Below, piece after piece: positions 27,016-60,271 of a stretch of DNA of 64,000 nucleotides. The stretch lies in assembly GCA_004293645.1 (NCBI GenBank), contig REAB01000053.1, forward strand, positions 1,182 through 65,181. The letters run 5' to 3'. Positions within the stretch are counted from its first letter, which is position 1. Each line of letters opens with the position of its first letter. Source of the DNA: Cytophagia bacterium. GTDB taxonomy: Bacteria; Bacteroidota; Bacteroidia; Cytophagales; Spirosomataceae. The notes below the pieces were generated by a model. That model was not told where the DNA came from. It was given only the letters and a program-made list of their open reading frames with translations, and searched no databases. The translations under genes and the position numbers were made by a program.

Positions 27016-28233
27016 ATGAAAACCCTCCTTTTACTTGTATTGTACTTGCTGGCAGGCCATTTTGTTTTTGGCCAAAATCAATATGTTTTGACGCACCTAT
27101 TTGACGCTGATGCCCCAAAAATTAACTTGACCAAACCCATTACTTCGGCAGCTTTTCGGTTTAAAGAACAACCCAACTGGGCCAATCTACGACTCATAGC
27201 CGACGGCGATACGCTCGCCCTGCACCCCGACCCGCACGCCGAAATACCCCAAAGCCAATTGGTAATATTCAGACAATCAGTTGGTTCGTTGGAATTGTTG
27301 GGCGCAAAAACTACCACTACACTCACGGGCGTGTATGCCAAACCCATCATACTGCCCACCTACTATCGGCAATTTAGAGTAGCCGTCGACTGCGAAAAAC
27401 CGCCCGTTGTACCTGCTTCGGTTTGGCGGGCAGGTCTTACGCCACCCAAAGAACTCCCCACTGCTACGGCGGTCAAATTTATCATTGTTCACCACGAAGC
27501 GGGGTCAAATACGCCCAGTAATTTTACCAACGTAGTGCGCAATATTTACGTTTTTCATACCCAAACCAACGGCTGGAATGACGTGGGATACAATTTTTTG
27601 GTTGCCCAAGATGGCACTGTTTTTGAAGGCCGCGACGGGCAAGGCCGCCTTGATGGCGACAACGTGCAGGGCGCACATTTTTGTGGTTTCAACGCTGGCA
27701 CAATGGGCATCTGCCTCCTCGGCGACTACATGACCGCCCAGCCACCCGCTCCCGCGCTGGCCTCGCTCACCAAGTTGGTGGCCTGGAAAATGAAAAAAGA
27801 AAACCTTGTTGAGCCTGGCAGCCGCTCGCTGCACGCCTCGTCGGGCAAAAACTTGGCTGTACTCTCTGCCCACCGCGATGGCTGCGCTACCAGTTGCCCC
27901 GGCGACAATCTGTACGCCCGTTTGGAGCAACTTCGCACCGACGTAGCCAATTCTTGCGACGGCATAAAAGCCATCGTTACGGCGGTTTTTCCCACCGTTA
28001 GTTCGCCCGCTGTCTATCCTAATCCGTCGGACAATGGTGCTTTTACGCTCGATGTGCCGCAGCCCATTCGGAGTTTGCGCGTGGTAGATGCGCTGGGGCG
28101 CGTGGTGTTATCGAAAGAGTTTTCGAGTGCCGCGCTTCGCTTTGAATTTCGACTGGAAACGCCTGGTTTTTTCAAATTAATCACCACCAATCAGCAGCAG
28201 GTGCAGTGGTCGCAGACGGTTTTGGTGCGTTAA
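27016..28233 (+). CDS. Secreted N-acetylmuramoyl-L-alanine amidase (Amidase_2/PGRP fold) with a T9SS C-terminal sorting domain
   Basis: It has a signal peptide, amidase_2 motifs (IIVHHEAGSN, GWNDVGYNFLVAQDGTVFEGR, ATSCPG) and a C-terminal VYPNPSDNGAFTL ... sorting domain. Confidence 0.8.
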   Translation: MKTLLLLVLYLLAGHFVFGQNQYVLTHLFDADAPKINLTKPITSAAFRFKEQPNWANLRLIADGDTLALHPDPHAEIPQSQLVIFRQSVGSLELLGAKTTTTLTGVYAKPIILPTYYRQFRVAVDCEKPPVVPASVWRAGLTPPKELPTATAVKFIIVHHEAGSNTPSNFTNVVRNIYVFHTQTNGWNDVGYNFLVAQDGTVFEGRDGQGRLDGDNVQGAHFCGFNAGTMGICLLGDYMTAQPPAPALASLTKLVAWKMKKENLVEPGSRSLHASSGKNLAVLSAHRDGCATSCPGDNLYARLEQLRTDVANSCDGIKAIVTAVFPTVSSPAVYPNPSDNGAFTLDVPQPIRSLRVVDALGRVVLSKEFSSAALRFEFRLETPGFFKLITTNQQQVQWSQTVLVR

Positions 28234-28312
28234 ATTTATTTTTACATTGCGTTTTTCCTTTTTGAGAACCCGTTTTTGCATTTTTCTTTGTGTAAATGTT
28301 TGCCCATAATAG

Positions 28313-28456
28313 TTTGATTTGTAATAAAGGAAAATTTAGTAGTAATCAATTGATGAACAAGCAATTACAGGGTATTAATATAATTGCGAATAAGTACTTA
28401 CCTTGACTCATTAATAATGATGCATTTTTTCAGTACTTTTGGTAATATTTGGTTCT
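28313..28456 (+). repeat. Dispersed structured intergenic repeat, full-length copy A
   Basis: Its 5' module (28313-28400) aligns with 37285-37381. Its 3' module (AAGTACTTaCCT ... TTTTGGTAAtATTTGGTTCT) aligns with 57976-58029. Confidence 0.7.
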
Positions 28457-28767
28457 AAATAACAGGTAAGTAGGTGAACATATTTAATCGACACTTCTGA
28501 TTTATGTAAAATTCTGATAATGAGTATTTTGAATTGCTGTGGACAGTCGACTATTGACTGTGGACTACTTAAATAATAAGTTGGTCGAATTAGTTTATGG
28601 AACGCAGATAACGCGGATACAGAGTACCGCGGATTTTCGCAGATAAACAAAAAAATTAGAAGAACTTTTGTGCAATAGAAATGTTGCCAATAACCATATC
28701 TCTTTGAACAATATGAAAAGCGTATGGCTCAATGAGAAGAAGAAAATAGCTTTTAAAAAAATATACA

Positions 28768-29454
28768 ATGAAACTTTTTACGCTGCCCAATCTAATGACC
28801 TGCGGCAATTTATTGTGCGGTTGTGTGGGCATTACGGCGGCTTTTCGGGGCGATTTGCTGCTCTCCAGTATGTTGATTGGCTTGGCGGCAGTGCTTGATT
28901 TTGGCGATGGTTTTGTGGCAAGATGGCTCAAACAGCAGTCGGAACTGGGCAAGCAGCTCGACTCTCTGGCCGACGTGGTAACTTTTGGCGTATTGCCCGC
29001 TTGCATGGTGTTTCAGCTCATTGAGCGCAGCACCGACGAGCTGCCGCACTTGCCGTCTTATTTGGCCTTTGTGTTGGCTGCTTTTTCGGCCTTGCGGTTG
29101 GCCAAATTCAACATAGATACCCGCCAAAGCGATTCTTTTATTGGCGTTCCAACGCCCGCCAACGCTATTTTGGTGGCATCACTGCCTTTTATTTTGCGCC
29201 ACAATCCCACCTTCGAGCCCTGGATTATCAACGAAACAGTGCTGCTGGTGTATGTATTTGTGATGTCCTTTTTGCTGGTGTCTGAGCTGCCCCTTTTCGC
29301 GCTCAAATTCAAATCGTTTGGCTGGCGTGGCAACGAGCTACCTTTTTCTTTTTTGGCTATTTCGTTGGTTCTCTTGGTGTTACTGCATTTTGTGGCGGTG
29401 CCGCTTATCATCGCGCTTTACATTGCGCTGTCTTTGGTTTTTAGGAAAGGGTAG
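28768..29454 (+). CDS. pssA: CDP-diacylglycerol--serine O-phosphatidyltransferase
   Basis: It has the CDP-alcohol phosphatidyltransferase motif (DFGDGFVARWL ... GKQLDSLAD) and is a multi-pass membrane protein. Confidence 0.8.
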   Translation: MKLFTLPNLMTCGNLLCGCVGITAAFRGDLLLSSMLIGLAAVLDFGDGFVARWLKQQSELGKQLDSLADVVTFGVLPACMVFQLIERSTDELPHLPSYLAFVLAAFSALRLAKFNIDTRQSDSFIGVPTPANAILVASLPFILRHNPTFEPWIINETVLLVYVFVMSFLLVSELPLFALKFKSFGWRGNELPFSFLAISLVLLVLLHFVAVPLIIALYIALSLVFRKG

Positions 29455-36781: not shown

Positions 36782-37216
36782 TTATTTGTGTAATTTTTGA
36801 ATTTCTTGAAACATCATCGCAAAGCCTTTTTCCATCTTCAATTCCAAATTATCCACTTTGGCTTCCAACTTATCAAACCTTACTTCCAAGTTATCAAACC
36901 TTACTTCCAAGTTATCAACCTTGGCTTCCAAGTTATCCAATTTGGTCTCGACTCGCTGAATGTCAGTATCATGCTTGCGCGACGATTTGCGTAAATCGGT
37001 AAGTTCAGATAGGCGGTCTAATAGCGCGTTGATGACGTGGTCAAAAGCATCGTGGGTAAGTGTTTTATCCAAGCGAATTTTTATCTCCACCAACTCTGAC
37101 TCAATTTTTTCAATTCTGAGCCTCATTTTTGACTGGTCGCGCATCAATTCAGATACGGAACTTTCCATGTCAATAATATACAGTTCAATTTGGTCTAAAC
37201 GCTCGCGGTCGCTCAT
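36782..37216 (-). CDS. Coiled-coil protein with five tandem heptads
   Basis: LDNLEAK VDNLEVR FDNLEVR FDKLEAK VDNLELK is encoded by 21-bp tandem repeats at 36842-36947. Confidence 0.6.
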   Translation of the reverse strand: MSDRERLDQIELYIIDMESSVSELMRDQSKMRLRIEKIESELVEIKIRLDKTLTHDAFDHVINALLDRLSELTDLRKSSRKHDTDIQRVETKLDNLEAKVDNLEVRFDNLEVRFDKLEAKVDNLELKMEKGFAMMFQEIQKLHK

Positions 37217-37284
37217 AATTCATTGATTTTGTGTGTTAAGTAGTTGGGTAGAAATAGGCGGTTCGCCGCTGCGATTATATTATT

Positions 37285-37381
37285 TTTGATTTGTAATAAG
37301 AGGTAATTTGGTAGTAATAAATTGACAAACAGGCAATTACAACGAATTGCTATAATTACAAATAATTCCGATAAGTACTTA
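37285..37381 (+). repeat. Dispersed structured intergenic repeat, copy B (5' module only)
   Basis: It aligns with 28313-28400 (TTTGATTTGTAATAA ... GCAATTACA ... AAGTACTTA). Its 3' end overlaps the stop codon of the Fe-S gene. Confidence 0.7.
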
Positions 37382-38170
37382 TAAACCTTGTTGTTGGGCA
37401 ATCAGTTCGGCCAAATCATAGACCTTCACGGTGTCTTCGCGTTCTTTATTCTTCACGCCGTCGGTCATCATGGTCATACAAAATGGGCAACCTACCGCAA
37501 TGGTATCAGCTCCCGTGGCGAGTGCTTCTTCGATGCGTTCGATATTAATTTCTTTTTTGCCCGCTTCGGCATCTTTAAACATTTGCGCGCCGCCCGCGCC
37601 GCAGCAAAGGCCGTTGGTGCGGCAGCGTTTCATTTCTACCAACTCGGCATCTAAGGCTTCCAACACCGCTCGTGGGGCTTCGTAAACATCGTTGGCGCGG
37701 CCCAAATAGCAAGAATCATGAAAAGTTATTTTACGACCTTTGAAAACCCCACCACCTTCTATTTTGACGCGGCCTTCGTTGATGAGTTGTTGCAAATACT
37801 GCGAATGGTGAATGACCTCGTAGTTGCCTCCCAAAGCAGGATATTCGTTTTTGAGGGTATTAAAACAATGCGGACAAGCGGTAACTATTTTTTTAACGCC
37901 GTACATTTCAAGCACTTGTATGTTCGACATGGCCATCATTTGAAACGTAAACTCATTGCCAGCGCGGCGGGCGGGGTCGCCCGTGCAGCCTTCTTCGGTG
38001 CCCAAAACGGCAAACTTTACGCCTACTTGATTGAGAATTTTAACAAATGCCACGGTTACTTTTTTGTAACGGTCGTCGAACGAACCCGCACAGCCTACCC
38101 AAAATAATACTTCGGGAGTTTGACCATTGGCAGCCATTTCGGCCATAGTAGGGACTTTTACTGCATTCAT
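37379..38170 (-). CDS. (Fe-S)-binding protein with two cysteine-rich CCG domains (GlcF/GlpC/HdrD-like)
   Basis: It has Cys clusters (FWVGCAGSF, TACPHCFNTL, CCGAGG, VGCPFC). I moved the start to MNAVKV at 38170. Confidence 0.75.
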   Translation of the reverse strand: MNAVKVPTMAEMAANGQTPEVLFWVGCAGSFDDRYKKVTVAFVKILNQVGVKFAVLGTEEGCTGDPARRAGNEFTFQMMAMSNIQVLEMYGVKKIVTACPHCFNTLKNEYPALGGNYEVIHHSQYLQQLINEGRVKIEGGGVFKGRKITFHDSCYLGRANDVYEAPRAVLEALDAELVEMKRCRTNGLCCGAGGAQMFKDAEAGKKEINIERIEEALATGADTIAVGCPFCMTMMTDGVKNKEREDTVKVYDLAELIAQQQGL

Positions 38171-38271
38171 TGAGATTGGTAATATTGAGTTGATGAACAA
38201 AGTACAAACATAGACAAATTAAGCGTAATTTGCACGTAAAAATAGCAGTTGCCAATTTACCACTAAACACC

Positions 38272-57165: not shown

Positions 57166-57891
57166 CTATTTTTCGTCTTTTATTTCTTCAAAATCGGTAA
57201 ACCCTTCGTCGTCATCTTCGTTTTCATCGTCCTCATCTTCTTCCCAATCATCGTCGTCGTCATCGTCGTCAAAATCAAGGTCGTTAAAATCAATACCGCT
57301 TAAATCAAAGCCACCCACGTGCGACAGATAGTGATAGTTTCCTGGACCAACGGCGGTATCAAGTTTTTGGATAATTTGCTTCACGTTGTCGTACGGTCCT
57401 GAGTTGTAAAAAGGCATTCCGTCTTTGCCAAATTCTAAATCCAGCAATTCTACCTCATCGGTGTCGGCAGCCAGCACGTATTGCGAAACAGCCCAATCTT
57501 TGTCTAATGGACTGATGTCCAAGTCTTCGGCATAAGCAATGCCGCCATAAACCACGTTATGAACGAGCGTGTAGTCGGCTATTTCTAATTCTTGCATCTC
57601 CGAAATTTGTTCCAACATTTCTTCGTATTCGTCTATTTCTACATTAAATAGGTAGTGGGTCTGTTTCAGTCCTACACAAAATACGTCAATCAAATAGGTA
57701 GCCCAGGTAATACTGCCGCCCGCGTGGCTGCGCGCCACTACCACCGTTGCCAGTCCTGTTTCGCGCCAGTCGGGATTGAGCCTGCACTCATAGATGGGTA
57801 AGTTGCGTGCTTTACCGCTCTTTAAGTAGGTTTGGGGGCTTTGCAAAGGGGCTTTGGCCACCGATTTTTTGTTTTTAGATTTCTTGCTCAT
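57166..57891 (-). CDS. Hypothetical protein with a poly-acidic C-terminal tail
   Basis: It is a 241-aa ORF ending in DFDDDDDDDDWEEDEDDENEDDDEGFTDFEEIKDEK. Confidence 0.55.
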   Translation of the reverse strand: MSKKSKNKKSVAKAPLQSPQTYLKSGKARNLPIYECRLNPDWRETGLATVVVARSHAGGSITWATYLIDVFCVGLKQTHYLFNVEIDEYEEMLEQISEMQELEIADYTLVHNVVYGGIAYAEDLDISPLDKDWAVSQYVLAADTDEVELLDLEFGKDGMPFYNSGPYDNVKQIIQKLDTAVGPGNYHYLSHVGGFDLSGIDFNDLDFDDDDDDDDWEEDEDDENEDDDEGFTDFEEIKDEK

Positions 57892-57913
57892 TTTTTTAGT
57901 GGATTATTTGTCA

Positions 57914-58089
57914 TTTGTCAGTGGTCATTGGTTATTGGTCATTAGTCAGTGGTCATTTGTCAATAGTTATTTGTTAAGTACTTGCCTGTAAGTAATCGCC
58001 ATTTTATATTTTGGTAAACATTTGGTTCTGCCCGCGCAGACCAATGACTATTGACCAATGACTATTGACCAATGACTACTTTGTCAGTG
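57914..58089. mobile_element. MITE-like element: degenerate GTCATTGGTCAATA-type inverted arrays flanking repeat-family copy C, bounded by a 10-bp direct repeat
   Basis: TTTGTCAGTG occurs at 57914-57923 and 58080-58089. The left arm (57924-57966) is an imperfect reverse complement of the right arm (58039-58079). The core (57976-58029) matches the 3' module of copy A. Confidence 0.5.
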
Positions 58090-58096
58090 CCTTGGC

Positions 58097-60271
58097 TCAT
58101 TTAAGTATCAGGGCGTAAACATCATTTTTGAGGGTGTAATCGGTAATTTTGCCCATGCCTTGATAATTGACTTTAAAGCCGTGGTTTTCGAGCAAATATA
58201 GCGCGTCGCGCAGCGACATTCCGCGTAAATTTGGAATTTTGTTGGGGTTTGTGTCGGTATTGGTCCATTGTTTTTTTGTGTTTGGGGCCGACATTACCCA
58301 GCCGTTTACGTTCACGGGTGCGTCGGTATTCAGTGCTTCGGCAATGGTGCGGAGGTCGTCGGCTTGGCCAGCGCGCAATTGCTTATTGGTTTCTTTGACA
58401 TTGTTTTTTTTGTTGGGTACGGGCGGGTGCATTTTTACGTCGTAGCCCACTATACGGTCGGCTACTTCTTTGAATACGGGTGCGGCCACGCTGCCCGCGT
58501 AGAGGTTGTCGCCACGGCCACCTTTGGGATGGCTCACAAACACAATGCAACTGTATTTGGGGCTTTTGGCAGGAAAATAACCCGCAAAAGACACGTTATA
58601 TTTACCCACTTTGCTGTACGTATTGTTGATAATGAGCTGCGCCGTACCCGTCTTTCCTGCTATTTGGTACTGGTCGTTGTGAATAATGTGTCCCGTGCCT
58701 TGCTTGTCGGCTACTGCGCCTTCGAGCATTTTTTGTACCCGCCTGATGGTCTGTTCGGAGGCAATCCGTTGCTCCAAAACTTGGGGTTTGATGGCCTGAA
58801 TGACCTCGTTGGCGTTGCGTACTTCTTGCACAATCATGGGGCGCACCCAATAACCATTGTTGGCAATGGCATTGTAAAAACTCAATGTTTGCAACGGCGT
58901 AATTTCCCACACGTATCCGTACGACAGGCGCGTGGCCGAGGTGCCGTCCCAGCCCGTAGTTTTGGGTTGCGGGGCCAGCGGCGGGGCTTCGCCCAGCATG
59001 GCTACGCCCGTGGGTTGGGTCAAATGAAACTTTTTGAGGTATTCCATGTATTTGTAGGGGTTGGTATAAAACCCGCTTCGTTGCATAATCAGGTGCGTTC
59101 CTACGTTCGACGATTGCTCCAATACCTGCTGCACCGTAATTGTGCCGTGGGCTTTGGTGTCGGTAATGGTAACTCTACCGTAAGTAGTGCTGCCATTGCC
59201 AGTCTGAATGGACGTGGCAGGCGAAACCTTGCCTTCTTCGAGGGCGGCTACCATAGTGGCAAGTTTGAAAGTAGAGCCTGGGTTGGTGGGTTGGGCCAGG
59301 GCGTAATTGAAGGTTTCGGCGTAGCCCGTGTCTTTTTTGCTGAGGGCTAAATTAACCATCGCTTTGATGGCTCCCGTTTGCACTTCCATTACAATAACGG
59401 TGCCGTAGTCGGCTTGGTAGCGGTTTAGAGTTTTGCGCAACGACGACTCGGCAATGTCCTGAAAATTAACGTCGAGCGTAGTGTAGAGGTCGTAGCCGTT
59501 GGCGGGTTGTAGTTTTTCGCTTTCTTCAAAGGGCATAAAAGTTTTGTCGTCGAGTACCCTAAACAAGCCTATTCCGGGCGTTCCCGACAGTTTTCTGTCA
59601 AAACTTGCCTCCAAACCCACCAGTCCACGGTAGGTGGCGCGGTCGAGGTAGCCAATGGTGCGGGCGGCCAAATTGCCAAAAGGCAGGTAGCGGCGATAAA
59701 AAACGGGGAGCTTGCCACCGCGCGTTTCGCCGTTGTTAAATTGCCTAAAAAACGGCCAACCGCGCGTTGCCTTCGCACTGGGCTGTATTTGCTGCGTGGT
59801 TATCATCTGGTATTCTCGAAAAGTAATCTGCCGATTGAGCAGCCGCACGTTGCGGTTACCTTTCTTTTTGTTTACTTCAAACTCATGGCGGGCAAATTTT
59901 AACTCGCGCAGGTAGTCTTCTTTGGTGCGTTGCCCAAACGTATTGGCAAAAAGCGTAGCCAACGAGTCTATGCGGCTATAAAAGTACTTTTCTTTGCTGG
60001 CGGCGGGGTCTATCGAAACCTCATAATAGGGCAAAGAAGTAGCCAAGAGGCTGCCATCGCTCGAATAAATATTGCCGCGCATGGCCGGAATGGTGTCAAT
60101 CCGAACGGTGTTGGCCATGTATTTTACCCACGGTTTGCCTTTGTACTTGGCATAGTGCTGCACATAGACAATGCGCCATATCACGAGTATGGCCACAATG
60201 ATAAGCAGCGAAGACACCACCCAAGAGCGTCGTGCAATGTCTGCCCGAATGTTGTTGGTTTTGGAAATCAT
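58097..60271 (-). CDS. ftsI: Penicillin-binding protein 2 / FtsI-type peptidoglycan D,D-transpeptidase with a C-terminal PASTA domain
   Basis: It has SxxK (GSTFKLA), SxN (SSNVG), KTG (GKTGTA) and an N-terminal TM anchor, and it follows ftsL. Confidence 0.9.
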   Translation of the reverse strand: MISKTNNIRADIARRSWVVSSLLIIVAILVIWRIVYVQHYAKYKGKPWVKYMANTVRIDTIPAMRGNIYSSDGSLLATSLPYYEVSIDPAASKEKYFYSRIDSLATLFANTFGQRTKEDYLRELKFARHEFEVNKKKGNRNVRLLNRQITFREYQMITTQQIQPSAKATRGWPFFRQFNNGETRGGKLPVFYRRYLPFGNLAARTIGYLDRATYRGLVGLEASFDRKLSGTPGIGLFRVLDDKTFMPFEESEKLQPANGYDLYTTLDVNFQDIAESSLRKTLNRYQADYGTVIVMEVQTGAIKAMVNLALSKKDTGYAETFNYALAQPTNPGSTFKLATMVAALEEGKVSPATSIQTGNGSTTYGRVTITDTKAHGTITVQQVLEQSSNVGTHLIMQRSGFYTNPYKYMEYLKKFHLTQPTGVAMLGEAPPLAPQPKTTGWDGTSATRLSYGYVWEITPLQTLSFYNAIANNGYWVRPMIVQEVRNANEVIQAIKPQVLEQRIASEQTIRRVQKMLEGAVADKQGTGHIIHNDQYQIAGKTGTAQLIINNTYSKVGKYNVSFAGYFPAKSPKYSCIVFVSHPKGGRGDNLYAGSVAAPVFKEVADRIVGYDVKMHPPVPNKKNNVKETNKQLRAGQADDLRTIAEALNTDAPVNVNGWVMSAPNTKKQWTNTDTNPNKIPNLRGMSLRDALYLLENHGFKVNYQGMGKITDYTLKNDVYALILK

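Follow-up and report, generated by a model that had tools for sequence, protein, structure and literature searches.

A preliminary description of the window (by which we mean the whole analysed stretch of DNA, 64,000 nucleotides long) had reported three copies of an intergenic repeat, here called A, B, and C, and we found that all three sites do lie between open reading frames. Copy A is housed in a gap of 534 bp (28234-28767), which is bordered on its left by an Amidase_2-domain gene (27016-28233, plus strand) and is located upstream of a CDP-alcohol phosphatidyltransferase (pssA-like) gene (28768-29454, plus strand). According to ORF and Pfam analysis, copy B has a coiled-coil gene (36782-37216) to its left and a CCG-domain gene (37379-38200) to its right, both on the minus strand. 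Copy C is flanked by a 241-aa ORF (57166-57891) and by an FtsI-type PBP gene (58097-60271), which are also encoded on the minus strand. Elsewhere in the window, the plus strand carries a 187-aa IS200-like Y1 transposase gene (1387-1950; Y1_Tnp, E = 6e-10), and no cognate repeat was identified near this gene. The repeat features of the three regions are summarized in Table 1.

Table 1. Repeat elements and element parts located in the window, with the evidence on which each assignment is based
Feature	Position in the window	Strand	Evidence
Copy A, decayed A/B-family element, 108 nt	28293-28400	+	MAFFT end-to-end alignment with 21 other copies
Diverged C-type relic	28391-28456	+	A and C regions aligned locally, comparison with C-type copies
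105-nt element of a third family, ends TAAGTAGGTG ... GGACTACTTA	28467-28571	+	
Dispersed repeat of about 51 nt, CGCAGATAA / CGCGGAT type, unrelated	28570-28620		
Copy B, full-length A/B-family element, 145 nt	37237-37381	+	Profile match, model positions 1-146, E = 5e-39
GC-hairpin leader module GGCGGTTCGCCGCTGCGA in copy B	37257-37274	+	
Central long imperfect hairpin of copy B, three nested helices	37289-37363	+	Fold
Copy C, C-type family member, 108 nt	57975-58082	+	nhmmer with the C core, flank comparison

Copies A, B, and C

The family profile covers copy B from end to end, and over model positions 49-133 this copy is 89% identical to the family consensus. A TA dinucleotide is present at both of its ends, namely at 37237-38 and at 37380-81. 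The second of these lies within the TAA stop codon (37379-37381) of the minus-strand CCG-domain gene, a codon that is retained with or without the insert. Copy B inserted there fairly recently and hit the stop codon exactly. Its central hairpin represents the inner part of the palindromic arms of the element, and the helices of this hairpin are built from repeated GTAAT and ATTAC words. The GC-hairpin module is found almost exclusively inside family members (114 of 120 genomic occurrences), and some copies, including A, do not carry it. At 37258-37272, copy B gave a weak terminator-like match. A terminator role for the GC hairpin was considered and dropped, with this weak consensus match as its single pointer and with an unbiased orientation of the elements.

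Homology of A and B in the same orientation was confirmed. The two copies are 79% identical over 108 aligned positions, and the family profile recognizes copy A with an E-value of 2.5e-11, over model positions 49-133 only. The true extents of both copies are those given in Table 1, and similarity within the family reaches about 48 nt further in the 5' direction than had been noticed. With 80% identity to the consensus, copy A ranks 12th lowest among 93 copies. Its 5' terminus has degenerated to TAAATGTTTG and its 3' terminus is kept, and it lacks about 10 nt near the 3' end in addition to the GC-hairpin module.

Copy A is adjoined, via the common palindromic terminus TAAGTACTTA, by a diverged C-type relic. 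This relic carries the box TTTTGGTAA-N-ATTTGGTTCT, which had correctly been reported as common to A and C and which occurs at these two sites and nowhere else in the genome. The box is shared because the C-type relic abuts copy A through the palindromic terminus. Further downstream, the gap contains an element of a 105-nt family. Genomic copies of this family number at least 15 (92-98% identity), and clustering grouped 17 elements whose ends are intact; the element upstream of the pssA-like gene is a young copy. The dispersed repeat of about 51 nt is represented by at least 10 genomic copies (88-100% identity). The 534-bp gap is a pile-up of at least three elements of a shared terminus class plus the unrelated 51-nt repeat, and copy A is one of its old remnants.

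Copy C had been interpreted as copy A from which the whole stem-loop is deleted. This interpretation was rejected, and C belongs to a different family, which has only the termini (TAAGTA.../...TACTTA) in common with the A/B family. In an alignment of the three sites, A and B were clearly similar and C aligned poorly. When the genome was searched with the A/B-family profile, copy C gave no match, and a forced search recovered the 3' terminus alone, in inverted orientation and with 5 bits. An nhmmer search with the C core retrieved about five significant homologues. The C-type family involves elements of about 105 nt, is present in about 4-6 copies, and includes a cluster of four elements with intact ends. 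Copy C begins with TAAGTACTTG and ends with a CCAATGA/CTATTGA heptamer array, which is followed by GACTACTT. Heptamer arrays of the TGGTCAT / TTGGTCA type were observed at 57908-57966, 58039-58079, C227:39700-39940, and C13:33660-33830, and such arrays flank C-type elements or form part of them. The right-hand array belongs to the 3' part of the C-type element, and the left-hand inverted array was seen at some loci only. These arrays resemble the STRR repeats of cyanobacteria.

Size, architecture, and mobility of the A/B family

The genome from which the window derives is available as a draft assembly of 4.63 Mb, which is 90.8% complete, consists of 242 contigs, and has a GC content of 45.7%. 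Family members were collected by BLAST and iterated nhmmer. The core given in the preliminary description retrieved 121 matches, and with the full model 203 matches were obtained across the genome, so that the supposed three-copy family turned out to be far larger. Seventy-one of the 203 matches are full length, 18 reach contig ends, and partial copies as well as solo halves are present. Identity to the consensus, quantified for 93 copies, has a median of 93% with a tail of old copies, one of which is copy A. The placement of 182 of the 203 matches is intergenic, as judged from crude longest-ORF gene calls with a floor of 90 aa that cover about 88% of the genome. The element itself is presumably non-coding, and with about 146 nt it falls below the ORF floor of these gene calls.

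The consensus of the A/B family comprises about 146 nt, and full copies vary between 110 and 211 nt. By our own count, its GC content is 30%, compared with 45.7% for the genome. When 18 canonical copies were aligned together with their flanks, a sharp break of similarity was seen at both termini, which read TAAGTAGTTG and AAGTACTTA. The terminal inverted repeats (TIRs) of the A/B subfamily (TAAGTAGTT vs TAAGTACTT) match at 8 of 9 positions. A sister subfamily with about 37 matches carries the same 5' leader as A/B, together with an unrelated 14-bp central stem and a perfect 12-bp TIR pair (TAAGTAGTTGCG). If the GC-hairpin module is disregarded, each subfamily amounts to a long imperfect palindrome, which is the classical build of a MITE (miniature transposon). 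Since the whole A/B element is such an imperfect palindrome, a hairpin can be folded from either strand. The terminus class TAAGTA(G/C)...(G/C)TACTTA is common to at least four families in the genome: the A/B family, the sister subfamily, the 105-nt family, and the C-type family.

Most of the full copies inspected (62 of 67) carry TA at both ends, and no duplication longer than TA was detected at the flanks of full copies. More direct information was obtained from a nested insertion at C153:2688-2998, where an outer copy is interrupted at a single TA by an inner element (2834-2974). The family consensus has this TA once, and two are found around the insert. When the empty site was rebuilt from the left flank, one TA, and the right flank, the result was 100% identical to many uninterrupted copies over 49-51 nt. 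This one clean nested event directly shows insertion with TA duplication.

Bacterial MITEs are smaller than 200 bp, are A+T-rich, carry TIRs and a terminal 5'-TA-3', and are accompanied by target duplications (Delihas, 2008; PMC2229807). The A/B element exhibits the corresponding size, TIRs, and TA target duplication upon insertion, and its many A+T-rich copies are dispersed over mainly intergenic sites. In our view, A and B very probably belong to a bacterial MITE family, whose members are non-autonomous transposable elements. The element inserts at TA, and the TA is duplicated in the process. The shared termini suggest that all four families may be moved in trans by one transposase that recognizes these termini, and a TA-duplicating DDE enzyme of the IS630/Tc1-like or a similar type would be a candidate for the mobilisation. 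Effects on adjacent genes, such as hairpins in read-through transcripts, would then be incidental.

Hairpin folding and alternative explanations

In the preliminary description, the repeats had been proposed to be functional plus-strand structured RNAs (small RNAs or cis-regulatory hairpins) with pairing under selection. Several observations are in line with this proposal. The 5' segment AUUUGUAAU can pair with AUUACAAAU in copy B and with AUUGCGAAU in copy A, where the outer helix contains two G-U pairs. A good fold is obtained for the plus strand of copy B (-32.6 kcal/mol, z = -2.62, compared with z = -0.92 for the minus strand) and also for that of the consensus (z of about -3.1). Across 22 copies, 97% of the cells are paired, compared with 24-68% when the partners were slid, and paired columns are slightly less variable than unpaired ones (0.070 vs 0.108). 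Moreover, long hairpins of unrelated sequence are present in two subfamilies, and the leader is nearly invariant between genera. However, a hairpin is what a palindromic MITE predicts without any selection on RNA, and copy A folds on its plus strand no better than shuffled sequences (-13.0 kcal/mol, z = +0.22; minus strand -15.2 kcal/mol, z = -2.49). The structure was judged from the consensus fold and from a MAFFT alignment of 22 copies. Here, covariation did not exceed that of shuffled alignments: two pairs had changed on both sides compared with 1.1 in the shuffles, 117 of 500 shuffles reached this value, and copies within one genome are not independent of each other for such a comparison. 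The covariation term calculated by RNAalifold from the same alignment was -0.22 kcal/mol, and no structure was returned when 84 profile-aligned copies were used. Double changes at the most variable pairs were also close to chance, as at pair 58/122 (4 observed vs 2.6 expected by our own calculation).

The argument that pairing is kept only if the plus strand is the RNA did not withstand a larger sample. Among 69 distinct hairpins, 64 G-U cells, which correspond to plus-strand wobble, were counted against 77 A-C cells, which correspond to minus-strand wobble, and the middle helix of copy A contains two broken pairs. With respect to co-directional neighbour genes, the orientation of the elements is unbiased (69 vs 57, based on the same crude gene calls); convergent gaps hold 21 elements and divergent gaps 19, and copies A and B face opposite ways relative to local transcription. 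The plus strand folds better by about 6 kcal/mol in 43 of 47 and in 19 of 21 copies, but this advantage is a consequence of the (G+T) composition, since shuffles give the same gap. Rfam was searched with the whole window at the gathering score and with the A and B regions at E-values up to 10, and only a tRNA and chance microRNA-type matches were found. Thus, the hairpin is real and stems from the inverted-repeat build of the element, and there is no sign of a conserved RNA structure. With covariation within the range of shuffles, the RNA proposal fails on a refuting condition that the preliminary description had itself named. What stands of it is that the repeats form an intergenic family of modular build that can fold into hairpins, and we consider a functional plus-strand RNA very unlikely.

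Two further explanations invoke other types of mobile DNA. The elements might be REP/REPIN/BIME-type repeats, for whose dissemination a RAYT-type Y1 (IS200-like) transposase that acts on single-stranded hairpins would be responsible. The genome contains seven Y1_Tnp matches, one of them in the window, and GC-rich hairpins as well as nested GC-rich units occur in the elements. However, no GC hairpin, GC unit, or terminus was seen within 900 bp of any of the seven Y1 genes, and in four related genomes that are rich in the GC unit, this unit is likewise absent from 16 of 17 Y1 loci. Y1 transposition (IS200/IS605) yields neither TIRs nor a TA duplication, and the presence of both in our elements argues against it. 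A length of 146 nt and a GC content of 30% are also unlike REPs, and taken together a REP-type origin is hardly to be expected. The partial copies and solo halves could alternatively indicate that, instead of forming a non-autonomous family in their own right, the repeats are solo ends, or fragments, of a single known insertion sequence, an outcome which the preliminary description had also envisaged. Against this stand the 71 full-length copies, which possess both ends and a fixed internal architecture, an assembly without any long element bearing these ends, and searches of plasmid and phage collections, in which no record showed similarity. We regard this explanation as extremely improbable.

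Transposase search, relatives, and nested units

For the A/B MITE, a matching transposase or parental IS was not found in the 90.8%-complete draft assembly with its 242 contigs, from which a repeated IS could be missing. DDE_3/IS630 (PF13358) gave no match in the genome, nor did the mariner-type model (PF01359), which was also silent in 14 of 14 control genomes. The termini are absent from four DDE_Tnp_1 loci and from one weak DDE_Tnp_1_2 locus. Inverted pairs of termini at distances of 400-5000 bp showed no recurrent length in the assembly, and stray terminus matches outside the family were not followed by a transposase ORF. The TA duplication fits the IS630/Tc1-mariner family, but it does not define it. 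Assignment as an IS630/Tc1-mariner-derived MITE is not supported, with no resident IS630-family element with DDE_3 found in the draft assembly. For many accepted bacterial MITEs, a parental IS with matching ends is not known either (PMC2229807).

The full element was not found in the 400 other genomes searched from the same bacterial family, in seven of which the 5' leader alone was matched. No orthologous empty site was recovered from this collection, in which the best conserved-gene identity is 77% and the genus is represented by a single genome. Two metagenome scans, one with the rebuilt empty site of copy B and one with the hairpin core, yielded no match in records from which the own lineage may be left out. 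Related elements were found in Arcicella and in another genus (Cytophagales MAGs), and these elements share the leader, have TAAGTACCC / GGGTACTTA ends, and possess central hairpins of their own. Exact matches of the 22-nt GC-hairpin leader were obtained in Arcicella rosea, in A. aquatica, and in Cytophagales MAGs. We also observed that this leader (AGGCGGTTCGCCGCTGCGATTA) is identical in several distinct repeat families of other genera, and that it does not differ between genera in which the DNA identity of conserved genes is only about 75%. In genome G011, the leader motif sits exactly at the break of an IS4-like transposase frame (ORFs 1217-1522 and 1488-2123 of locus L008).

A separate observation concerns a GC-rich unit of 18 nt (ACCGCA plus CGGGCGGCCCCG), which forms a small hairpin and occurs about 136 times in the genome, for example at C105:31037, C219:14924, C40:9491, and C153:2783-2808; neither A nor B contains it. 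Seventy-five copies of this unit reside in members of the MITE family, where they occupy model positions 22, 41, and 95 and may point in either direction. In the hairpin loop (position 95), one to five copies follow each other in tandem with a 16-nt period (inserts of 16, 32, 48, 64, and 80 nt). The other 61 copies occupy unrelated AT-rich contexts without target duplication, often inside heptamer arrays. The 12-nt core of the unit is patchily amplified in other genera of the family, for instance to 101, 98, and 63 copies compared with 0-6 for a reversed-pattern control. In Arcicella rosea, some copies of a repeat contain short GC-rich inserts of about 11-15 nt that other copies lack. A Y1_Tnp match at G215:C323:115-429 ends early (model positions 1-105 of 121), exactly at a copy of the GC-unit core, and the gene may have been interrupted here by an insertion.

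Small dispersed repeats (SDR) of Nostoc were reportedly described by Elhai et al. in 2008 under the title 'Very small mobile repeated elements in cyanobacterial genomes'. The 18-nt unit, but not the MITE that carries it, resembles them as a tiny hairpin-forming unit that is found within MITEs as well as within heptamer arrays and can face either way. It differs from them in phylum and sequence, and in the 16-nt tandem arrays that occur here. The only pointer to mobility of the unit is its presence in some copies and its absence from others, so that it would be a candidate mobile unit. Taken together, the nested unit and the leader that is identical across genera could mean, although we hold this only tentatively, that Spirosomaceae carry 'very small mobile elements' as so far described in cyanobacteria.

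Among known systems, the A/B element is most conveniently compared with three. RUP is a 107-bp pneumococcal MITE, which is thought to be moved by IS630-Spn1 and the ends of which match a resident IS630-family element (PMC2229807). Both RUP and the A/B element are short, non-coding, and AT-rich, carry TIRs, insert at TA, are present in about 100 or more intergenic copies, and have inserted into other mobile elements. In contrast to RUP, neither an IS630/DDE_3 gene nor a matching IS end was found here; the sequences are not similar, and the host here belongs to Bacteroidota and not to Firmicutes. Like the A/B element, the Correia / NEMIS elements of Neisseria (100-155 bp) have TIRs, TA ends, and module-based size variants; no transposase is known for them, and their transcripts form long hairpins that can be cleaved by RNase III (PMC2229807). 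Their sequence and TIRs are unrelated to those of the A/B element, and the organisms belong to different phyla. MITECca01 of the Cardinium endosymbiont, a member of the Cytophagales, is an abundant, lineage-restricted MITE of about 240 bp, which is derived from an IS982-family element and the ends of which match the resident parental IS, ISCca4 (PMC9769881). It originates from the same order as the A/B element, but the sequences are unrelated, and a parent was not found for A/B. The A/B family works like RUP or Correia but belongs to neither of them, since the sequences are unrelated and an IS630 partner was not found.

To our knowledge, MITEs have been little described in free-living Cytophagales. 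For the reading of such loci, our data indicate that G-U "compensation" in two copies of a palindromic repeat is no evidence for an RNA. For annotation, this means that a supposed novel RNA becomes a defined superfamily of mobile elements. This superfamily accounts for many intergenic repeats of the genome, for some of the contig breaks, and for the pile-up upstream of the pssA-like gene, and its signature, TAAGTA(G/C).../...(G/C)TACTTA together with the TA duplication, is usable for masking and for strain typing.
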